DNA from: an uncultured virus (IMG/VR IMGVR_UViG_3300001765_000069)
Taxonomy: Duplodnaviria > Heunggongvirae > Uroviricota > Caudoviricetes
DNA length: 20,000 nucleotides
IMG/VR virus record: IMGVR_UViG_3300001765_000069
Direction: 5' to 3' (one strand)
Every line of letters starts with the position of its first letter. Within the stretch, counting starts at the first letter, position 1. Below the pieces are notes generated by a model, which did not search any database, was not told the DNA's origin, and saw only the letters and a list, made by a program, of their open reading frames with translations. Shown one piece after another: positions 4,709 through 20,000 of this stretch. The position numbers and the translations under genes are program-made.

Positions 4709-5266
4709 ATGCTAAAGAAAAAGAAACTCATAGGTATCACAGGCCGTGCAAAGTCTGGCAAGGACACGCTGGGCAAACACTTGATGATGCGCCATAACTT
4801 CCACCGTATGGCCTTTGCCGACCCGTTGAAAGATGCGATGGCGGCAATCTTTGGTGTGGCCGTGGAAGAGTTTCATTGCGAAAAGCTGAAGGACGAGATC
4901 GAACCGCACTGGGGCATCACTCGACGCTTCATGCTGCAGCACGGCGCTGATGCGCTACGGGCCAAGTTTGGCCAGGGACTGTTCGTTGATCGTTGGGTTC
5001 ACGGCTTCCTGAAGGTGGCCGACACCGACCACGTCGTCGTGACCGATGTCAGATACTCGGCCGAGGCTGAGGTAATCCGTTCCCTTGGCGGTGTCATCGT
5101 TGACATCCGGCGTGAAGAATCTGGCCTGCCAGGGCTGGCAGGTGAGCACAGTTCAGAGCAGGCCATCAACGCTTCTCTGATTGACCGCATCATCATCAAC
5201 AACAGTGCCAAGGAAGACTTGTATCAGTGGGTCGACCTTATGCTGTTTGAGGGGTTCGACAAGTGA
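4709..5266 (+). CDS. Deoxynucleoside monophosphate kinase (T4 gp1-like)
   Basis: IGITGRAKSGKDT P-loop, AFADPLK, RFMLQHG, VVTDVRY, HSSE, IIINN. Start set at ATG 4709 after AGGA. Confidence 0.9.
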   Translation: MLKKKKLIGITGRAKSGKDTLGKHLMMRHNFHRMAFADPLKDAMAAIFGVAVEEFHCEKLKDEIEPHWGITRRFMLQHGADALRAKFGQGLFVDRWVHGFLKVADTDHVVVTDVRYSAEAEVIRSLGGVIVDIRREESGLPGLAGEHSSEQAINASLIDRIIINNSAKEDLYQWVDLMLFEGFDK

Positions 5267-10580: not shown

Positions 10581-10830
10581 AACCATAGTTGTTGAGAAGT
10601 GCTCGCAGGTTGGTATGTCCGAGGAGTTAATCCCGTTTGACTTTGGCGATCTCCCCAACGTCAGCACGCCTTCACCCGAAGAAATCAAAGCCGCCGAGAC
10701 CGCGCCGAAGATCCTGAAACCGAAGTTCCTCGTCTGGGCCATGGCTATCGTCCTGAACATGCCCTGCCCGCCCATCCTGATCTGCCAGTCCCACCATGGC
10801 CGTGTAACTGTTCGTGGAGTCAACATATGA
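10570..10830 (+). CDS. Hypothetical protein
   Basis: 86-aa ORF overlapping both neighbours; exact start uncertain. Confidence 0.55.
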   Translation: MMHETIVVEKCSQVGMSEELIPFDFGDLPNVSTPSPEEIKAAETAPKILKPKFLVWAMAIVLNMPCPPILICQSHHGRVTVRGVNI

Positions 10831-11789
10831 CCATGCCAATGCTCGCTTCCGACTACGATGAGTCGAAGCTTAAATTCCCCCTGCTTGCCCAACCCAAGAT
10901 CGACGGCGTGCGCGGCGTCCACTTGAATGGTTCGTTCACCGGTCGCAGCCTCAAGGCTCACAAGAACAAGGCAGCCACTGCCACATTCAGTGTCCCGGAG
11001 TTCGCGGGACTTGACGGCGAACTCACCGTCGGCGACCTGACCGGCACTGATCTGTGCCGCGACACTACTAGCAAGATGGGCACGATCAAGGGTGACGCGG
11101 ACGATATCGTCTGGAACGTGTTTGACTTGATCAACGAGAACACGGCCAGCCTGACCTACGTCGAGCGCTACGCGGCCCTCGGCCGGCGCCTCAGCGCCAT
11201 CGCTGAGTTCCACCCGGAAGTTAGCCACCTGCTCAACATCATGCCGACCTACTTCGTGACCACGCTGGATCAGTTGCTGGAACTGGACGACAAGTGGCTG
11301 GACGAAGGTTACGAGGGCACTATCATCCGCGACCCGAACGGCCTGTACAAGCAGGGCCGCAGCACCGTCAAGGAAGGTGGCCTGCTCCGCATCAAGCGTT
11401 TCATGCAGGAGGACGCCGAGGTCATCGACGTCGTCGAAGGCCAGTCCAACGGCAACGAGGCCAAGACCAACGAACTCGGCCGCACCGAGCGCAGCAGCCA
11501 CCAAGAGAACATGACGCCGAATGGCATGGTTGGCACGCTCACCTGTAGAGTGCTGAAGGACGTGCTGGATCTGCGCCGCCCGGACGGCATCCTGCTCCGC
11601 AAGGATCAGATCATCACAGTAAGTGCCGGCAAGATGAAGCAAGACATGCGCCAAGACTTAATGGCCAATCCCGACAAGATCGTGGGCAAGACTATCTCGT
11701 TCAAATTCTTCCCGAAGGGCATGCTGGACAAGCCACGCTTCCCCACCTTTCACTCAATTCGACTGGAGAGCGACAATGCGGCTGAGTAA
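10827..11789 (+). CDS. lig: ATP-dependent DNA ligase (compact phage type)
   Basis: QPKIDGVR (KxDG), LDGEL, VFDL, EGYEGTIIR, LRIKRF, C-terminal PRFP. Confidence 0.95.
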   Translation: MTMPMLASDYDESKLKFPLLAQPKIDGVRGVHLNGSFTGRSLKAHKNKAATATFSVPEFAGLDGELTVGDLTGTDLCRDTTSKMGTIKGDADDIVWNVFDLINENTASLTYVERYAALGRRLSAIAEFHPEVSHLLNIMPTYFVTTLDQLLELDDKWLDEGYEGTIIRDPNGLYKQGRSTVKEGGLLRIKRFMQEDAEVIDVVEGQSNGNEAKTNELGRTERSSHQENMTPNGMVGTLTCRVLKDVLDLRRPDGILLRKDQIITVSAGKMKQDMRQDLMANPDKIVGKTISFKFFPKGMLDKPRFPTFHSIRLESDNAAE

Positions 11790-12444
11790 ACATCACATTG
11801 AACGATTCGTTCAGGACGTCATGGATGACGTGCCGACGCCCGCGGCCAAGGCCAAGACGCAGGCCATTGCTGATTACAAGAAGGCGGTTGAAGACACCCT
11901 GCCTGCTGACGTTAAGCCGATCTTGAAGAAGTACCCGCACCTGTTAGAACGTAAATCCATGTACGTCAAAGGCTGGGAAACATTCAGATCTGACGGCGTA
12001 TTCTCCAGTATGTATGTCCACGTTGTACTCATGGATGGGCAGTTGCCGTTTAAGCCTGACACTGAAGTTACTCAGGTTCCGTACGCCAAAGAGTTTCAGG
12101 CTCGTAAGGAACTGCGCCGCCGCCTTCTCGACGTAGGCTCGAAGTGTTCAACCCTTGCCAAACTCAAGGAAGCGTTCCCGGAGCTCATCAAGTACATGCC
12201 AGAGGAGGTGGAGCAGCCTAAGCTGAACTTGCCGATGGCTGCCGGCGGCGTGGTGGCTGACCTGTTCAAGTCTGGACTGCCTGCACCTGCAAAGGTTGAG
12301 GCGCCGAAGCAGCGTGTCACAGTGTCTGCCAAGGCTATGCAAGCTATCCAGAACGCAGTCGACAATCCGCCTGATCCAAATACTGCATTGAAGAAGGCAG
12401 CTAGGGCGTACAAAACCAAGGTGAAAACCAATGCCAAGACTTGA
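11776..12444 (+). CDS. Nmad5-like (nucleotide-modification-associated domain 5) protein with C-terminal DUF1778-like extension
   Basis: N-terminal MRLSK-x5-FVQDVMDDVP and CSTLAKLKEAFPELIKYMP...LP...LFKSGLP resemble Nmad5 as I recall it; extra tail RVTVS...DNPPDPNTALKKAA. Confidence 0.65.
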   Translation: MRLSKHHIERFVQDVMDDVPTPAAKAKTQAIADYKKAVEDTLPADVKPILKKYPHLLERKSMYVKGWETFRSDGVFSSMYVHVVLMDGQLPFKPDTEVTQVPYAKEFQARKELRRRLLDVGSKCSTLAKLKEAFPELIKYMPEEVEQPKLNLPMAAGGVVADLFKSGLPAPAKVEAPKQRVTVSAKAMQAIQNAVDNPPDPNTALKKAARAYKTKVKTNAKT

Positions 12445-12628
12445 AGACTACGTCGAGGTGACTGGTGTCGTTCTTGACAACACTCGTGCCGACATCAAGT
12501 TCAACTTCGGACATGGCGAGATATGGGTGCCGAAGAGTAAGATACTTGAGGACTTCTTCAACATCGGCGATATCAAGACGTGGCACATCGATACTAACCA
12601 TGCCATAAGACTAGGGCTCGTCAACTAA
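12431..12628 (+). CDS. Small hypothetical protein
   Basis: 65 aa, RBS AAGGTG, beta-rich with IWVPKS. Confidence 0.7.
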   Translation: MPRLEDYVEVTGVVLDNTRADIKFNFGHGEIWVPKSKILEDFFNIGDIKTWHIDTNHAIRLGLVN

Positions 12629-12630
12629 AG

Positions 12631-12659
12631 TTGACACTTTACGGGATGGGAACTAATAT
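12631..12659 (+). promoter_or_regulatory. Sigma70-type promoter for the sbcD-sbcC-nrdB-thyX block
   Basis: Perfect TTGACA (12631-12636), 17-nt spacer, TAATAT (12654-12659); AGGAG RBS at 12673-12677. Confidence 0.8.
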
Positions 12660-12685
12660 CTCATCCCGGTTTAGGAGATATTTAG

Positions 12686-13744
12686 ATGATTACGATACTG
12701 AATGACGTACACCTTGGTGCCAAGCGTAAGTCAGGCACCACTCCTCAATCACAGCAAGACCTTAGCGACTACCTGCTCAGCACTTTCTCGCTGCAGGTGC
12801 AGTCGGCGACTGGCAAGCTAGTCATCGCTGGCGACCTGTTCGACAGCTTTGAGGTTGACAGTAACACCGTCCTGCAAGCCTACCTGACTTTGGAAAATCA
12901 CCTCGCTAATGGTGCTTATCTGGCTCTGATTGCCGGCAACCACGACTGGTCCCCGCGTGGCGACAAGCTGTCCAGCTTCCACCTGTTGGCCGGGTTGTTG
13001 AAGGCCACCTACCCTGGTCACATAACCCTGATCGACAAGGCGTTGACCTTGGTTGACCTTCCAACTGGCACCTTCGCCATTCCTCACATGCCAAACCAGG
13101 ACGTGTTCGATCTGGAACTGGAGAGGGCTATTGACATAGGCCCTACCGTACAAAACCTGATCCTGCACGCCAACTACGCAAACGGCTTCTGTGATCACTC
13201 CGACCACTCTCTCAACGTCAGCCGCGAGGTTGCTGAACGCTTCGCTGCCAAGGGCATCCGCCTGATCTTTGCGCATGAGCACCAGGCTAAGCAGGATTTC
13301 GGCGGCATGGTGTTTGTGATGGGCAACCAGATGCCCAGTTCGATTGCTGACTGCCTTGGCAACGACGCCAAGTATATGCACATCCTGAATGACAACGGTG
13401 GCATCCATACTCAGCAGACATGGCGCCGCTTCGATGCTGAAGGCTACGCCGAGATCGACTGGCGCGAACTGGAACTCAACCCGTCTGGCGACAAAGGATT
13501 CATCCGCGTCACCGGCAGCGCTGGAGCGGGTGAAGCGGAAGCCGTGGTCAACGCCATCTCGAAGTACCGCGCCAAGTCCACCAGCTTCGTCGTCACCAAC
13601 GCCGTACGCATCGCTGGCATGGCCGACATGAGCGCGATGGGGGAGGTCGCTGCAGAGTCCATCAAGACCTTCGACGTGCTGACTGCACTGCTTGAAGAAC
13701 TCGATGATCGTGAACGTAAAGTGGTGAAGGAGATGTTGGAATGA
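12686..13744 (+). CDS. sbcD: SbcD/Mre11-like metallophosphoesterase nuclease
   Basis: DVHLG, GDLFD, GNHD, LHAN, AHEH motifs; close to an SbcC-like ATPase. Confidence 0.88.
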   Translation: MITILNDVHLGAKRKSGTTPQSQQDLSDYLLSTFSLQVQSATGKLVIAGDLFDSFEVDSNTVLQAYLTLENHLANGAYLALIAGNHDWSPRGDKLSSFHLLAGLLKATYPGHITLIDKALTLVDLPTGTFAIPHMPNQDVFDLELERAIDIGPTVQNLILHANYANGFCDHSDHSLNVSREVAERFAAKGIRLIFAHEHQAKQDFGGMVFVMGNQMPSSIADCLGNDAKYMHILNDNGGIHTQQTWRRFDAEGYAEIDWRELELNPSGDKGFIRVTGSAGAGEAEAVVNAISKYRAKSTSFVVTNAVRIAGMADMSAMGEVAAESIKTFDVLTALLEELDDRERKVVKEMLE

Positions 13745-14105: not shown

Positions 14106-16294
14106 TCAAGAATCTGAAACTACAAAACTTCATGCGCCACGAGAACCTTGAAGTGGCGTTTACCGGTGGGCTGCAGGTGCTGCGCGGCGCCAACGAGGGT
14201 GGCAAGTCGAGTCTCCTGCTCGGCATCGCTTATGCCTTGTTCGGTTCCAAAGTGCTGCGCGGCAACTTCTCTGACACAGTGACCTGGGGCCAGCCCGAGA
14301 CCAGCCTGCGCGTCACGCTCGATCTCAACATCGCCGGCAAGTCTCTGCGCGTGGTGCGCCACAAGGGCGGGGCTGAGGTGCAGGCGTTTGTTCCGGGGCC
14401 TGAGTTCGTGGACATCGGTGGAGGCGAGGTTCGAAGATTTGAATCCATCGAAGGCGGCAGCATGCGCCCCATCGTCACCGGTCAGAACGAAGTCTCGGCC
14501 TACATCGCCAACCTGATCGGGGCTGATGCCACGGCCGCGTCGAAGCTTATGCTGGCCAACCAGGGCAACCTGCGTGGCGCCCTAGATCAGGGTCCGAAGG
14601 CCACCAGCCAGATGATCGAAGACCTCGCTGACTTCGACATGTTCGAACGCTTGATCGAGGCCATGATCGGCAAACTGGTGCTCGGCAACACAGATGCCAT
14701 CGAGAAGCAGGTGGCCGAGGCGGAAGCCGCACTGGCTGCCGTGCCCGACGTGGTGTCTCCGGACTATGCGCCGATCGATTTCGAGATCGCCTCGCTGAGC
14801 GCCGGCATTGCCGATGCCGAGCAGGCTGCTAAGGTTGAGTTCGACAAGCTGGGCAAAGCTGACGCGGATCTGGCCGCGGCGCGGGCCGCTGTGTCGGTGG
14901 TGGCCGAGGTGCGGGCGCAGATGGTGCAGTCGGCTGACAAATCGCTGGTGCTGCTTGATCGTGAGAAGGCACTGGCTGCAGAAAGAGTCTGCATGTTCTC
15001 TGCAGATGACCGGACGGCGATCTCTAACGACTTGGCCGATGCCAAGACATGGCAGGCCAATCGGAACCTGTACGGGCAGTATCTGGCACTCACTTACCCG
15101 AAGATCTCGTGGGACAAGCCAGAGGCCGACTTCCTTCAGGAGTACGCCATGATTGCCGCCCGCCTGAACGAGGCCCGCGCCAACCGTGCTGAACTTGAAA
15201 CACAGATCAAGGTGCTGGAATCCTCGCTTGTCACGTCGGCATTCTGCGGCTACTGCGGAGAGGATTTCTCGAAGCTGCCGGAAGTGGCCAGCAAGAATGC
15301 TGCCACCCTTGCTTCAATCGCTGCCAAGAAGATGCTGGCAACCGCTGCCGACGATCTAGTTACGTCCTTGATGAAGGACATCCACGTTATGGACGGCTTG
15401 GCCTCCTCGGCCCGAGAGTACGTCGTCTCTGCCGCAAAGCTGGGCGACAAGGTTGAGATGCACAGCAACAGCTGGCCACCCAGTGCCAACTGGATCTGCA
15501 GCATCCCGCCGGAGACTGGCCCTGACGCAGCGGCCCTGGCCGGCAAGCTGTCTCGTATAGATGCCGCGATCAAGACCTCAGAAGCGGCGGCTGCCAAGCT
15601 ACTGGTTGTTCTTGACCAGATCGAAGACGAGCGCGGCGTGGCCAAGCGCCTGCTGGAGCGCCTTGAAGCGCTGCCCCAACCCTCCGTCGCCGAGGCCGAG
15701 GCCGCCCGGGAAGCCGCTCACGCCGTCTGGACCACGGCCTACCAAGCCTACTCGACATCCAGCGTGCGCCTGCAGGAACTGCGCAGCCAGCGCGAACGCA
15801 CGGCGTCAGAGTACGAGACAGCCCTGACCACCAGAGTGAAGCTAGCCGGGGACTGGGCTGACAAGAAGGAGCAGGTTGATACCATGCGCTTCAACAACGC
15901 CTTGCTCAAGAAGGTGCGTGCCGCTCGCCCGATCATCTCCGACAAGTTGTGGAATACGGTGCTCACTTCGGTCAGCACAGCCTTCAGCCGCCTGCGGGGT
16001 GAGCCTTCCGTCGTCACCAAGGCGAAGGACGGTTTCACGGTGAATGGCAAGGCTGTCGAGTTACTGAGCGGCAGCACGTTGGATCTGTTGGGCCTGGCCA
16101 TCCGCACTTCGCTGGTCAAGACCTTCATCCCACATTGCCCGTTCCTCGTTCTGGACGAGCCCAGTGCCGCGTGCGACATCGATCGAACCACTACAATGCT
16201 GGGCTTCATCCACGCCATTGGCTTCGACCAAGTCGTCCTTGTGACCCACGATCCCGTCGCCGAGACCGTGGCCGATAATCTGATTCAACTGTGA
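14102..16294 (+). CDS. sbcC: SbcC/Rad50-like ABC ATPase
   Basis: Walker A GANEGGKS, coiled coils, zinc hook CGYC, signature LSGST, Walker B LVLDEP, H-loop VTHD. Confidence 0.92.
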   Translation: MIKNLKLQNFMRHENLEVAFTGGLQVLRGANEGGKSSLLLGIAYALFGSKVLRGNFSDTVTWGQPETSLRVTLDLNIAGKSLRVVRHKGGAEVQAFVPGPEFVDIGGGEVRRFESIEGGSMRPIVTGQNEVSAYIANLIGADATAASKLMLANQGNLRGALDQGPKATSQMIEDLADFDMFERLIEAMIGKLVLGNTDAIEKQVAEAEAALAAVPDVVSPDYAPIDFEIASLSAGIADAEQAAKVEFDKLGKADADLAAARAAVSVVAEVRAQMVQSADKSLVLLDREKALAAERVCMFSADDRTAISNDLADAKTWQANRNLYGQYLALTYPKISWDKPEADFLQEYAMIAARLNEARANRAELETQIKVLESSLVTSAFCGYCGEDFSKLPEVASKNAATLASIAAKKMLATAADDLVTSLMKDIHVMDGLASSAREYVVSAAKLGDKVEMHSNSWPPSANWICSIPPETGPDAAALAGKLSRIDAAIKTSEAAAAKLLVVLDQIEDERGVAKRLLERLEALPQPSVAEAEAAREAAHAVWTTAYQAYSTSSVRLQELRSQRERTASEYETALTTRVKLAGDWADKKEQVDTMRFNNALLKKVRAARPIISDKLWNTVLTSVSTAFSRLRGEPSVVTKAKDGFTVNGKAVELLSGSTLDLLGLAIRTSLVKTFIPHCPFLVLDEPSAACDIDRTTTMLGFIHAIGFDQVVLVTHDPVAETVADNLIQL

Positions 16295-17307
16295 GAAACA
16301 TGCAACCAACAAAAGCATCTGACAAGCGCGTCGTCAATGGCAAGGGCGACATTAACCAACTCATGCCCTTACGCTACGAATGGGCATGGGATTACTTCTT
16401 GAACGGCAACAAGAACCACTGGCTGCCCACCGAGATCCCCATGGGCCAAGACATCGCCGATTACCGCACGCTCACTCCGGCCGAGAAGCACGTTTACGAG
16501 AACGTGCTGGCCTATCTCACGACGGCTGACATCTTGGCTATGCGCAACATCGGCTTGGCCATCATGGAAAAGGTCACCGCGCCGGAATTGCAGATGTACA
16601 TGGCGCGGCAGGTGATGGATGAAGCGATCCACACCATGAGCTACCAGCACTGCATCGAGAACCTCGGCCTTGACCAGGGCGAAATCTACAACCGCTACCG
16701 TGTCGTGCCGGAGATCCACCGCAAGATTGAACTGAGCAATCGGCGCCTGAGTGCAGTGCTGCACAGCGACCTTGACCTGACTGGCAAGCACGCGCTGAAC
16801 ACCTTTGCCATGTCCTATCTGTTCTTCGCAGCGGTCTTCGAGGGAACGTGGTTCTTCAACGGCTTCTCACCGGTCTTCAGCTTGCAGCGCCGCGGCCTGA
16901 TGAAGGCTACAGGGGAGATGTTCCAGTACATCCTGCGCGACGAGACCATGCACGCCTCATTTGGCTTGCGCGTCATCAAAACACTGATGGAGGAAGAGGG
17001 GTTGGTACTCAACCCGGCTGAAGTGGATGAAATGTGGAAGGAGTGCCACGAAGCTGAAGAAGACTATATCCGCTACGTCCTGCGCACTCCGATTCTGGGC
17101 TACTCGGTTGATATGCACATGGGGCAGTTCCGCTACGTCGCCAATCGCCGGATGCATCAGCTTGGACTGCCTGACCAGTACCCTGGCGCAGTGGACTGCA
17201 TTCCTTGGCTGGACGAGCAGGTAGGCGGCACCAAGAAGGAGAAGAACTTTTTTGAAACCCGCGTCACCGAATATCAGACCGGTGGCGCAGTTAATTGGGA
17301 GGATTGA
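16291..17307 (+). CDS. nrdB: Class I ribonucleotide reductase beta subunit (start may be ATG 16300)
   Basis: NHWLPTEI, TADI, DEAIHTMSY (radical Tyr retained), FEGTWFFNGF, RDETMH, C-terminal KEKNFFETRVTEY. Confidence 0.95.
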   Translation: MRNMQPTKASDKRVVNGKGDINQLMPLRYEWAWDYFLNGNKNHWLPTEIPMGQDIADYRTLTPAEKHVYENVLAYLTTADILAMRNIGLAIMEKVTAPELQMYMARQVMDEAIHTMSYQHCIENLGLDQGEIYNRYRVVPEIHRKIELSNRRLSAVLHSDLDLTGKHALNTFAMSYLFFAAVFEGTWFFNGFSPVFSLQRRGLMKATGEMFQYILRDETMHASFGLRVIKTLMEEEGLVLNPAEVDEMWKECHEAEEDYIRYVLRTPILGYSVDMHMGQFRYVANRRMHQLGLPDQYPGAVDCIPWLDEQVGGTKKEKNFFETRVTEYQTGGAVNWED

Positions 17308-17308
17308 C

Positions 17309-17542
17309 ATGACATGCTACTTTTGCGACGACCCCGCACGTATTGAAGACGACACTGCGGTTACAACTGAATTCACGCTGCCAACATCGCCTAAGCTGTC
17401 AGACTTGAAGAGCAAGGAATGCACTGTGGTAGAACTGCAGGCCGCACTTGCCCACTTGATTGACCTCTACAACGAGCAGGGCAAGGTGATGAGTGCTGCT
17501 ATTGCGGATAAGCAGGACCGCGAATGGAGAGCAACGATATGA
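17309..17542 (+). CDS. Small hypothetical protein
   Basis: Start set at ATG 17309 after GGAGG; N-terminal CYFC; ATGA overlap with the deaminase. Confidence 0.65.
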   Translation: MTCYFCDDPARIEDDTAVTTEFTLPTSPKLSDLKSKECTVVELQAALAHLIDLYNEQGKVMSAAIADKQDREWRATI

Positions 17543-18123
17543 GCAACAACAAATGTATGACGTGCGCGATGAAAAACTCATGGAATACTGCTGAAGGTGT
17601 TTCTGTGTGCTCAGTATGTGTTGGCTTCAAGAACTGGGTGGCAGCTGAAGAACAAAAGCCATACGTTGTGATCACGACTGGAGGCTACAACGTCACCAAG
17701 GCACTTGCATTCCTCGACATCGCGCAAGCCTACGCCCGTCGATCCAAGGATCGGAGTACACGGGTTGGAGTCCTTATTCTGGACCCCAACTTCAACGTCC
17801 GCAGTTCAGGTTGGAACGGATTCCCGCGAGGCATTGATGACACGATCGAAGTACGTCATGACCGCCCAGCCAAGTACCTTTGGACGTGTCATGCTGAAGA
17901 GAATGCTGTGGCACAGGCCGCACGCGTTGGAGTTTCTCTTGACGGATGCACGGCCCTTGTAACTGCGCTATTCCCATGCACCACGTGCTCACGCATGATG
18001 ATCCAGGCTGGCATTGTCCGCATCCTTGCTCCCGGTGTACCAGCCAACACAAGGTGGGACGAGCAGGAAGTTGTAGCCCTGGAGATGTTGGCGGAAGCTG
18101 GTATTGAAATTGTTCGTTACTGA
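17539..18123 (+). CDS. dCMP deaminase with Cys-rich N-terminal extension
   Basis: SKDRSTRVG, GWNGFPRG, HAEENA, PCTTC zinc-deaminase motifs. Start at ATG 17539 after GGAG. Confidence 0.92.
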   Translation: MSNNKCMTCAMKNSWNTAEGVSVCSVCVGFKNWVAAEEQKPYVVITTGGYNVTKALAFLDIAQAYARRSKDRSTRVGVLILDPNFNVRSSGWNGFPRGIDDTIEVRHDRPAKYLWTCHAEENAVAQAARVGVSLDGCTALVTALFPCTTCSRMMIQAGIVRILAPGVPANTRWDEQEVVALEMLAEAGIEIVRY

Positions 18124-18150
18124 GTGTCACTTTTAAGGATAGGAACCAAT

Positions 18151-18849
18151 ATGAAACGGATTGATCTGCTGGACAATGGCTACGTGCAACTGGTAGAAGC
18201 ATGGGGAAGTGATTCAAGATTCATTGAAGCTGCTCGCATGAGTACTGATGGTGGTTTCAAGGGATGGGGCACGCCTGACTCGCCAGGAGACGAGCGCCTG
18301 CTGGCTTACCTCTACAACAACAAGCACTCCACCCCGTTCGAGATGGGCGGGCTGATCCTTGAGGTCAAGGCGCCAATCTTCGTGTTCCGAGAGTGGCATC
18401 GCCACCGCACCCAGTCCTACAACGAGATGTCGGCACGTTACATCCCGCTGCCGGACGAGAACTACATGCCGTCGATCGAACGCTTGTTGACTGGTGCCAA
18501 CACGGCGACAACCAACAAGCAGGCACAAGGTCTTGGTGGTCTTAGTGCCGACAACGCCGAAGACTTCAGGCTGATGCTGGAAAGTCTGTACGAGCATGCT
18601 CAGATTGTGTATGACGCTGGGTTGAAGTGGGGCGTGCCGAAGGAACTGGCTCGCTTGCCCGTACCTGTTGCTCGCTACAGCAGAATGCGTGCCAGCGCAA
18701 ATCTGCGCAACTGGTTGGCCTTCTTGACTTTGCGGATGAATCCTGCTGCGCAGTGGGAGATCCGGCAGTACGCAGACGCAGTTGGTCAGCTTGTCAAGGA
18801 GAATTTCCCACGTACGTGGGATCTGTTCGAAGCTGAGCAATCTGCTTAA
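18151..18849 (+). CDS. thyX: FAD-dependent thymidylate synthase
   Basis: HSTPFE, RHRTQSYNEMSARY (ThyX motif), ELAR, NLRNW, LR-x4-AQWEIR. Start at ATG 18151 after AGGA. Confidence 0.96.
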   Translation: MKRIDLLDNGYVQLVEAWGSDSRFIEAARMSTDGGFKGWGTPDSPGDERLLAYLYNNKHSTPFEMGGLILEVKAPIFVFREWHRHRTQSYNEMSARYIPLPDENYMPSIERLLTGANTATTNKQAQGLGGLSADNAEDFRLMLESLYEHAQIVYDAGLKWGVPKELARLPVPVARYSRMRASANLRNWLAFLTLRMNPAAQWEIRQYADAVGQLVKENFPRTWDLFEAEQSA

Positions 18850-18872: not shown

Positions 18873-19214
18873 ATGCTCAACGATCTCGACACGGCCAAAG
18901 CATCGGTATCAGAAGAGGCCTTGCCCCTCAGCATTGGCCTGAAAAGCCGCTCCACGCGGGTGGCTATTTCAAACCCGGCGCTGAGGACCATAGGTACGGC
19001 AGAACTTGCTCAAATTGTGGGCAAGATGGAGTCAACCCTCAAAAGGGAGTTGACAACTAACCCTGATAGGTATCCACCAAGGTTCCGCCCCCCTGGTAGC
19101 AACAAGATCCTGTGGCTCGAACGTGTCGTGATCGATTGGCTTGACAAAGTTCAAAATGGATGTTGGCAGGAACCGAAGCGTCGGACTGGACGTCGGCGAC
19201 AGGTTCCGGCTTAG
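18873..19214 (+). CDS. AlpA/excisionase-like winged HTH protein (start may be GTG 18960)
   Basis: IGTAELAQIVG...TLKREL...RYPPRFR...ILWLERVVIDWL pattern, basic tail, near the integrase. Confidence 0.7.
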   Translation: MLNDLDTAKASVSEEALPLSIGLKSRSTRVAISNPALRTIGTAELAQIVGKMESTLKRELTTNPDRYPPRFRPPGSNKILWLERVVIDWLDKVQNGCWQEPKRRTGRRRQVPA

Positions 19215-19222
19215 GAGGTTCA

Positions 19223-19438
19223 ATGGCCATTAAAATAGTTTATGTGAGACCCGGGACGATGATGGATATAAGGGTTGTCAGCACACTTGATGAAACACTT
19301 GACAAACGCGGGTGGGTGAGTCAGAACAGGCCGGGTAGTCTACTTGTGACGGTTCACGGCAGGGACAAGGTTGAGGTTCATGGTCATGACATCGACACTT
19401 ACGGAGGGCGTCAATGTGGGCAGATTAAGCACACGTGA
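19223..19438 (+). CDS. Small hypothetical protein
   Basis: Strong RBS AGGAGG at 19213-19218, ATG 19223. Confidence 0.65.
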   Translation: MAIKIVYVRPGTMMDIRVVSTLDETLDKRGWVSQNRPGSLLVTVHGRDKVEVHGHDIDTYGGRQCGQIKHT

Positions 19439-19730
19439 AAAGTTGGCAGCATTGCTGCAGTCTAGCTTTCCAGAGGTCGGTGGTCAGCCTGTAGTGTGGC
19501 ACCCGGACGACCTTTACCCTGCCACTGGGGCATACCGGTCAAACGCCCAACTCGATTGCTGCCGGTGGGAGGGGTGGGCGAGCAGAGCAAATGCGGACGG
19601 CACCCGTCACCCAATAGCATCAGTCCACAGCTACGAGACCATGACCAGGCTGGTGAAAATCGGCGGGTTGAGTATTTCAGCTGACGGCGAGATTTACGCG
19701 TCTAGCCCAACTTCTTCGCCAGGTCGGTAA
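19416..19730 (+). CDS. Hypothetical protein
   Basis: GGAGG then GTG 19416; 3' end overlaps the integrase 3' end by 29 nt. Confidence 0.55.
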   Translation: MGRLSTREKLAALLQSSFPEVGGQPVVWHPDDLYPATGAYRSNAQLDCCRWEGWASRANADGTRHPIASVHSYETMTRLVKIGGLSISADGEIYASSPTSSPGR

Positions 19731-20000
19731 CGTCTGGCGAGTAGTAGACGTTCAGGCTTCTGACGTCTTTGTGGCCGGTGACAGCGGCCAATTCCAACAC
19801 ATTGGCAAACTTCGACGCAACCCGGGTGGTCACATCCCGGCGCGTGTCATGCAGATGCAGATCCTTGATTCCCAGATCCTTGCAAGCCTGCCTGAAGTAG
19901 ACGCCGATCGTTCCCTTGTTCACTTCGAACACCCTCCCGGACTTCCTGTCCCCGATCACCACTCCCAGCAATTCCACTGCCCGCAAGCTGAGCGGCACAT
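19702..20000 (-). CDS. int: Tyrosine recombinase/integrase, C-terminal catalytic part (5' truncated by the window)
   Basis: HDTR (H-x-x-R), TGHKD and catalytic Tyr region LNVYY. Confidence 0.9.
   Translation of the reverse strand, partial: VPLSLRAVELLGVVIGDRKSGRVFEVNKGTIGVYFRQACKDLGIKDLHLHDTRRDVTTRVASKFANVLELAAVTGHKDVRSLNVYYSPDVTDLAKKLG

Follow-up and report, generated by a model that had tools for sequence, protein, structure and literature searches.

A segment resembling the neutralising half of TacA-type antitoxins lies inside a phage Nmad5-like protein and recurs without a toxin in unrelated phage proteins: a candidate decoy for host GNAT toxins

The stretch of DNA analysed here (the window, 20,000 nucleotides) forms the final 20 kb of a virus record of 79,828 bp, which has direct terminal repeats and is rated 100% complete. 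Table 1 lists the gene under study, whose protein we call P0001, with its parts and neighbours. The N-terminal part of the tyrosine integrase is encoded at the genome start, the gene spanning the record's two ends, and judging from this integrase the phage is probably temperate. At 18873-20000 of the window and the genome start, an excisionase-like gene faces the integrase gene. The window also encodes a set of nucleotide-metabolism genes (17524-18849, 2307-2657, 4709-5266 and 16291-17307, by Pfam): dCMP deaminase, ThyX, a MazG-like (PRA-PH) protein, dNMP kinase and the ribonucleotide reductase small chain. Searches for the host by the integrase gave matches only 28-36% identical, spread over beta- and gammaproteobacterial records; a genome scan gave one 29% match and a ligase scan gave zero. 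The DNA polymerase is 26-27% identical to those of the nearest cultured phages. A promoter scan was uninformative, with 2 sites found and 2.1 expected. A contig of run X1, which may be the source sample, covers 12075-12806 with zero differences from the window. A second contig of the same run (record 7) aligns ungapped over 12322-12510 with 37 differences in 189 bases (about 80% identity), which suggests a further full-length allele with the insert in this run.

Table 1. Coordinates in the window of the fusion gene, its parts and the neighbouring genes.
Feature	Position	Strand	Remarks
Nmad5-TacA-half fusion ORF (P0001)	11776-12444	+	222 aa; in a replication gene run; overlaps both neighbours
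Nmad5 core, aa 1-169, carrier	11776-12282	+	PF18757 match
Pro/Ala/Lys linker, aa 170-178	12283-12309	+	coil in AF2 model
TacA/DUF1778 toxin-neutralising half, Q179-K213	12310-12414	+	Pfam, PDB sequence search, HMM control
30-codon in-frame insert, S184-K213	12325-12414	+	alignment with insert-less relatives
Native gene end, TKVKTNAKT-stop	12415-12444	+	overlaps the start of the next ORF
Downstream ORF, 65 aa	12431-12628	+	not a GNAT toxin
ATP-dependent DNA ligase, upstream neighbour	10827-11789	+	same gene order in L003 and L004
Tyrosine integrase, C-terminal part	19702-19998	-	PF00589, 31.8 bits

The carrier is an Nmad5 protein by both profile and fold. P0001 matches PF18757 just above the cut-off (27.5 bits, cut-off 27, E 3.9e-6, aa 109-154), and its fold matches in BFVD are named Nmad5 (E 2.8e-4); a fold search of the PDB with its model returned none at E≤0.001. 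The 149 Nmad5 representatives aligned to it cover aa 1-170, end near aa 169 and have a median length of 174 aa. The AF2 model of P0001 (mean pLDDT 88) places two helices, 185-196 and 201-220, after the coil. Scans of viral contigs for Nmad5, in which records close to this one may be absent, gave zero matches.

The initial annotation had held that the peptide at 12310-12414, which is Q179-K213, resembles the C-terminus of DUF1778 antitoxins, and a profile search bears this out. P0001 matches the TacA1/DUF1778 profile PF08681 with 25.5 bits (cut-off 21, E 1.3e-5, aa 172-213), limited to profile positions 38-79 of 80, i.e., to the C-terminal, neutralising half; positions 1-37, the N-terminal RHH, are unmatched. 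The tail alone scores 27.8 bits, and the whole genome holds a single PF08681 match (profile positions 36-79). A search of PDB sequences with the 53-aa tail gave seven matches at E≤10, and six of them are chains of DUF1778/KacA type or similar: 6gtq_C (E 0.011), 6ajm_C, 5zgn_A (KacA), 6ajn_C, 7zg5_C and 1y9b_A. We take 6gtq and 6ajm to be AtaR and 7zg5 a TacA, their database label being only DUF1778; 1y9b_A, labelled only 'conserved hypothetical protein', presumably belongs to the DUF1778/KacA-type group as well. The top five chains align without gaps, as had been claimed for the antitoxin end. Since their E-values are weak (0.011-0.2), a shuffle control was run: an HMM of 10 true antitoxin C-halves gave the tail 45.7 bits and the best of 5000 shuffles (4527 scored) 8.3 bits. 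Among plasmids, 9 of 11 weak tail matches are annotated DUF1778, and the single one inspected precedes a GNAT gene; 401 genomes from a single phylum yielded 12 matches, 8 of them antitoxins adjoining a TacT-type toxin. Searching short proteins for words of the tail gave zero candidates. The resemblance of the segment to the C-half of TacA/DUF1778 antitoxins is real.

The absence of the RHH half and of a GNAT toxin gene, noted before for the window, holds for the complete 79.8-kb genome. No GNAT was found there by PF00583, by an HMM of 28 viral-locus toxins or by a 16-row toxin alignment, the last of which finds the toxin in both control records (212-237 bits). As it passes the Pfam cut-off but has no RHH domain and no toxin gene beside it, we place P0001 outside the DUF1778 antitoxin family, although it likely works like that family's neutralising half. 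With phage antitoxin mimics it shares that it is encoded by a phage, in a complete record with terminal repeats, without a cognate toxin.

The segment had been described as a C-terminal tail following Nmad5. Comparison with close relatives (five homologues at 77-89% identity and one cluster member) retains the antitoxin-like segment and revises its placement, as it is an insert, S184-K213, within the native Nmad5 end. The whole insert is present in P0003 and missing in P0004-P0007; relatives lacking it end ...PKKVT[I/V]RKVK[P/T]NAK, and the window gene therefore has 30 extra codons inside this native end. P0008 carries the first part of the insert and then the native end again, which makes it a decayed copy. 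The Pro/Ala/Lys linker is native to the close lineage, since it is found in the insert-less P0004-P0006; the KVK[P/T]NAK end is common to P0003, P0005, P0006 and P0008, and the native VTV of the Nmad5 end provides the antitoxin-like strand. Among 1.84 billion representatives, a profile including the tail matched 500 proteins, and of the best 150 only P0003 extends through the tail. An HMM of the module, as we call the antitoxin-like half, found it in none of the other 149, distant Nmad5 representatives (best 8.5 bits, longest 202 aa), and a syntenic relative of 42% identity (L004) stops directly after the Nmad5 core. With four close relatives and 149 distant representatives lacking it, the insert is a lineage-specific addition to Nmad5. 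In L004 (2117-3979) the Nmad5 neighbourhood is followed by what we take, from their translations, to be QueD-like and QueE-like genes and by a further gene, hinting at 7-deazaguanine DNA modification; these genes are not found at this place in the window phage.

The history of the insert is one of a shared insertion that was relaxed in at least the P0008 lineage. In a tree of the Nmad5 core, P0003 groups with the insert-less P0005-P0007 (98/95), apart from P0001, and the insert was therefore lost several times or moved by recombination; three of the five inner branches of this tree are open. P0001 and P0003 are identical at 24 of 33 module positions (73%) and 135 of 169 core positions (80%), and by these values the module appears to be conserved about like the core. 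Between P0001 and P0008 (locus L003), dS is 0.60 and dN/dS 0.56 in the module (23 codons only), and 0.43 and 0.11 in the core. The P0008 module has lost its last helix, has no Pfam match and scores 18.8 bits. A native EAPKK-like word lies on both sides of its shortened insert (L003:2277-2421), which suggests that the last helix was removed by recombination at a short repeat. The 65-aa ORF downstream of the fusion gene, which has no Pfam or PHROG match, is kept in L003 with dN/dS 0.10 (45 codons).

How the segment would meet a toxin can be read from KacA. According to the available part of the structural report (PMC6698736), KacA's C-terminal part (betaB 52-56, alphaC 57-70, PPAP, alphaD 75-86) wraps KacT, its R77A change abolishes neutralisation, and further KacA copies, using the RHH assembly, block the face at which the toxin dimerises; a review, in the part available, states that AtaR neutralises AtaT via a disordered C-terminal region (PMC7758455). 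Q179-K213 has the same layout of strand, helix, NPPxP and helix as KacA betaB-alphaC-PPAP-alphaD (aa 52-86), maps onto these residues one for one and aligns ungapped over KacA 48-87. Five of the 15 contact residues are identical (R53, A67, P72, N75 and L78). M54, N57, W61, V64, I68 and L85 are replaced by V, S, M, I, V and Y, and R52, E58, S60 and R77 by Q, A, A and A, the R77 position being A204. Since this position is also Ala in a true antitoxin (L148) and in 20 of the 50 distinct orphan sequences described below, R77 would be toxin-specific rather than universal.

We modelled a complex of aa 173-216 (47 alignment rows) with the toxin that adjoins the best cellular match (L148; 16 rows). 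The model passes, scoring 0.76 with the best control at 0.00; of 157 solved pairs 116 came up to the score mark, and of 215 mismatched pairs 2 did. Contacts agree between runs to at least 92%, with partner pLDDT of at least 75, and the predicted interface lays aa 178-213 on toxin surfaces 62-69, 106-114, 143-152 and 159-167, corresponding to those covered by KacA1 on KacT. The pass may be a memory of solved complexes. Since like complexes are already solved and the partner alignment contained halves of true antitoxins, 10 in all and among them the cognate of the modelled toxin, we read the predicted KacA-like docking on a cellular GNAT toxin as likeness and compatibility, not as binding.

The same half-antitoxin occurs in other phages. 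A scan of viral contigs (59 of 64 parts) with the pattern NPPxPNxxLxxAA returned 120 loci, namely 42 canonical antitoxin-GNAT operons, two whole antitoxins without a toxin, eight chance matches dropped by eye, and 68 orphan halves with no toxin neighbour, which amount to 50 distinct sequences; a narrower motif pattern gave 0 loci. A few of the 68 are doubtful: L084 is perhaps a whole antitoxin that has diverged, debris could account for the tiny ORFs L015 and L100, and L063 has an HTH. Conservation among the 50 sequences extends to positions that the pattern left free (L in 40, S/T in 47, D in 49, L/F/I in 50, Y in 35), the window copy being without the D. Whole records were searched for 43 orphan loci out of 46 selected. 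PF08681 matches in 42 of the 43, with 41 above the cut-off; the matches never begin before profile position 28 and run across 30-44 positions. The toxin alignment found a TacT-type toxin in 0 of these 43 records, of which 10 are at least 90% complete and many are fragments; six have some GNAT, none of TacT type, and 37 have no PF00583 match. Whole or near-whole TacA-type antitoxins also occur as orphans, at L040:1336-1560 (+), L115:103-366 (+) and possibly L084:1171-1557 (+), with no TacT-type toxin in the record. The record of L063 (G023), a 341-kb T4-like phage, has six GNAT matches, none of TacT type, five of them in frames of about 500-550 aa.

The carriers of the orphan halves are at least eight unrelated proteins, mostly of T4-like jumbo phages: two membrane-protein families, a coiled-coil family, a cytidylyltransferase, a DNA methylase, an exonuclease-like protein and an HTH protein are among them. 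All five large orphan records tested have terminase and T4-type gp23 capsid genes. When 53 of the 68 were clustered by their upstream part (the other 15 having too little upstream sequence), they fell into groups of 25, 18, 4 and 2 and four singletons. The orphan loci are not independent, because 47 of the 68 lie in three families of phages of 29-37% GC. A module profile matched 1422 of 8000 scored proteins, and of the best 120 matches 106 are 232-581 aa long and 14 antitoxin-sized; as these families supplied most of the profile, the count speaks of abundance and not of independence.

In one of the membrane-protein families, family B, we examined the best 80 of 181 loci; the module is present in 38 of the 56 distinct proteins, and the family tree requires seven gain/loss changes, at least four of them forced by strong branches. 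Members without the module often keep the first helix and miss the NPP-helix half, like P0008, and distant members have an older helix at the module's place. The proteins of L022 and L080, which represent two unrelated membrane-protein families of T4-like jumbo phages, differ in their N-termini altogether and are identical in 189 of 193 residues from the module on. Comparison of these sequences indicates that the module is gained and lost repeatedly. The proteins of L022 (ORF 1050-2414, -), L080, L012, L027, L029 and L031 have acidic C-terminal regions made of recurring short motifs together with the TacA half, and the other motifs could be further decoy modules. Among cultured phages, the jumbo phage Vibrio phage 2.275.O carries an internal variant of the TacA half in NVP2275O_112 (L133:2027-2917, +; 22.1 bits, over the Pfam cut-off), flanked there by Cys/His-rich stretches. 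A match in Brevundimonas phage Gurke was set aside as unclear, as it lies after a stop, between annotated genes, and keeps only NPPDP.

As a control we searched 201 cellular genomes, which gave 82 PF08681 matches in 45 genomes. Seven of these are to the C-half only: one MazE/AbrB hybrid, one split antitoxin, one adjoining a toxin fragment, and the others lying in short, weak or ambiguous frames. No graft of the half on a long cellular protein was seen in this 201-genome sample. In the hybrid (L149:1330-1617, +) a MazE/AbrB DNA-binding domain is fused to the TacA C-half, and an intact TacT-type GNAT toxin follows (L149:1613-2113, +); the TacA half is therefore not tied to RHH. Such shuffling in cells, seen also in DUF4065-GNAT pairs in the available part of PMC9177977, likewise moves the neutralising half between scaffolds; however, the cellular antitoxins stay beside their toxin as autoregulated operons, which the phage module does not.

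The initial annotation had proposed that the phage captured the neutralising peptide to disarm a host GNAT toxin. Part of this stands on what was found: the C-half match, the lineage-specific insert, the lack of a toxin of its own, the passing model and the orphan recurrence. The recurrence of the orphan half in many unrelated phage proteins strengthens the anti-toxin reading, and we consider it somewhat better than an even chance that the insert is a portable antitoxin mimic, or decoy, against host RHH-GNAT toxins. Type II GNAT toxins acetylate aminoacyl-tRNAs (PMC9177977, in the part available). Infection would free the host toxin, through antitoxin decay after host shut-off or through a trigger; the fusion, made together with the replication genes, would mop up the freed toxin, and by binding it would prevent aminoacyl-tRNA acetylation during infection. 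The RHH half may have been dropped because it serves DNA binding, and the carrier would be incidental, offering only expression and a flexible mount, so that any protein would do. One point against a decoy is that the second interface of KacA on the toxin dimer requires the RHH assembly, which the insert lacks. Others are the changed KacA contacts of this copy, with Ala at the R77 position, and its missing D, the decay of the P0008 allele, the half-only debris in cells and the lack of independence among most orphan loci. GNAT-TA pairs are mostly specific, as stated in the available text of PMC9431474, and the reach of one decoy is therefore limited; narrow specificity would also explain the patchy gain, loss and divergence of the module, whose gains and losses would track which GNAT-TA loci a host has and how specific these are. 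The idea is testable, because a cultured phage, 2.275.O, carries the variant module. A broader proposal, which we put forward tentatively and at somewhat less than even chances, is that unrelated phage lineages graft the 35-residue TacA half as a plug-in decoy into flexible stretches, where it is swapped by recombination, and that RHH-GNAT systems are an anti-phage defence.

The evidence can be read in other ways. The insert could be a neutral or decaying passenger, a host antitoxin fragment recombined at short similarity into the tolerant, disordered end of Nmad5. The decayed P0008 allele with its module dN/dS of 0.56, the lack of the insert in four of seven close relatives, the half-only remnants in cells, the frequent meeting of temperate phages with host TA loci and the departure of the window copy from the orphan consensus would all fit. 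We nevertheless regard this as fairly unlikely: the P0001 and P0003 modules are nearly as alike as their cores (73% and 80%), halves with like borders sit in at least eight unrelated carriers with unsearched positions kept, and the cellular remnants are short or broken frames (two of six ambiguous) rather than grafts on long proteins. It is decidedly unlikely that the segment is a look-alike, a generic helix-NPPxPN-helix motif that came up in low-complexity tails of phage proteins or was passed around among them, serves another partner and is like TacA partly by convergence. The similar first helix in family B members without the NPP-helix half, the older helix in distant ones, the native VTV strand of the window gene and the jumbo-phage tails built as strings of other recurring motifs suit this idea, but the orphan records match 30-44 profile positions and pass the Pfam cut-off in 41 of 43 cases, and the tail's top matches in the PDB, plasmids and cellular genomes are true antitoxins with GNAT toxins next to them. 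Were the likeness to this exact surface convergent, that in itself would suggest selection for toxin binding.

Two further explanations accept that a GNAT protein is bound. The purpose might be anti-addiction or competition, with protection of a lysogen or an infected cell upon loss or degradation of a plasmid or island bearing a TA system; it might be a disturbance of TA stoichiometry and promoter control; or a non-toxic GNAT might be the partner. The same sequence and model evidence serves here as for the decoy; the available text of PMC10899753 describes tacAT as a strong post-segregational killer, a module that kills cells efficiently after loss of its genes, that of PMC9431474 describes anti-addiction by antitoxins on other replicons, the phage encodes an integrase, and a non-TacT GNAT is present in 6 of 43 orphan records. 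We think this set of explanations unlikely, since the gene sits in a replication run and not in a separate lysogeny-type cassette, the carriers are mostly proteins of T4-like jumbo phages, and 37 of the 43 orphan records have no PF00583 GNAT. That P0001 acts in trans as the antitoxin of a toxin encoded by the phage itself is very improbable. Prophages often carry TacA-GNAT pairs (42 of the 120 viral loci), but the 100%-complete genome has no GNAT and none of the 43 other orphan records has a TacT-type one, so that this explanation is already largely refuted and could be saved only by a structurally unrecognised toxin.

The decoy reading has its closest parallels in known antitoxins and known phage anti-TA factors. 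The RHH-GNAT antitoxins KacA, AtaR and TacA (PF08681) have a C-terminal strand-helix-PPxP-helix like that of the insert (available parts of PMC6698736 and PMC7758455). Unlike them, the phage fusion has no RHH, toxin gene or operon and is embedded in an unrelated phage protein, and unlike KacA it has several contact residues changed, including R77. Phage anti-TA factors described in the accessible portions of the literature are T4 Dmd (against RnlA/LsoA), TifA and pseudo-toxI (ToxIN), ICP1 Gp145 and orphan DarG-like enzymes (DarTG) (PMC10305079, PMC13728456, PMC11825919); a phage-encoded neutraliser of a host toxin is common to them and to the decoy reading. T-even phages encode a DarG1-like enzyme that is homologous to an antitoxin and has lost an N-terminal domain (PMC13728456 and PMC10305079, in part). 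These known factors are whole stand-alone genes or RNAs directed against TA systems proven to stop phages, whereas the type found in the window is a module of 30-35 aa in many unrelated carriers, and its target would be a TA family for which no anti-phage role was found in print. Dhillonvirus Nmad5 belongs to the same Pfam family (PF18757) and is also a phage gene; it is longer (residue 296) and was not among the tblastn matches in cultured phages. A missense change in it gives escape from Tmn and its deletion does not; this paper (PMC11846954), the only experimental one found on Nmad5, ties the protein to sensitivity to Tmn and not to counter-defence, and reading Nmad5 as an anti-Tmn protein was wrong. 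Nothing connects this result with the insert, and the part of the paper available mentions no antitoxin segment.

In the literature searched, from which subscription journals largely fall outside, we found no report of TacA halves in phage proteins and none of anti-phage activity of RHH-GNAT systems. GNAT, TacT, AtaT and acetyltransferase do not occur in the available part of a November 2026 review (PMC13728456), PADLOC has no model for the five TA proteins tested, and TacAT was included in a phage-defence screen (PMC13645617, available part); general TA background is given in the part available of PMC8138530. Antitoxin mimicry by phages is known, and the portable-module form is apparently a wider, unreported pattern.

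Whether RHH-GNAT TA systems serve persistence, plasmid addiction or defence is open. Finding a decoy on the phage side in many unrelated genes would strongly hint that these are anti-phage toxins, and it gives a direct test. If so, RHH-GNAT systems would be a widespread, unrecognised anti-phage defence, and anti-defence would exist as 30-residue inserts in genes annotated otherwise, which gene-level searches miss; the search by half-profile can be extended to the neutralising peptides of other antitoxins. Counter-defence would then be hidden as short modules within ordinary genes, and the acidic tails of jumbo-phage proteins may be strings of decoys.
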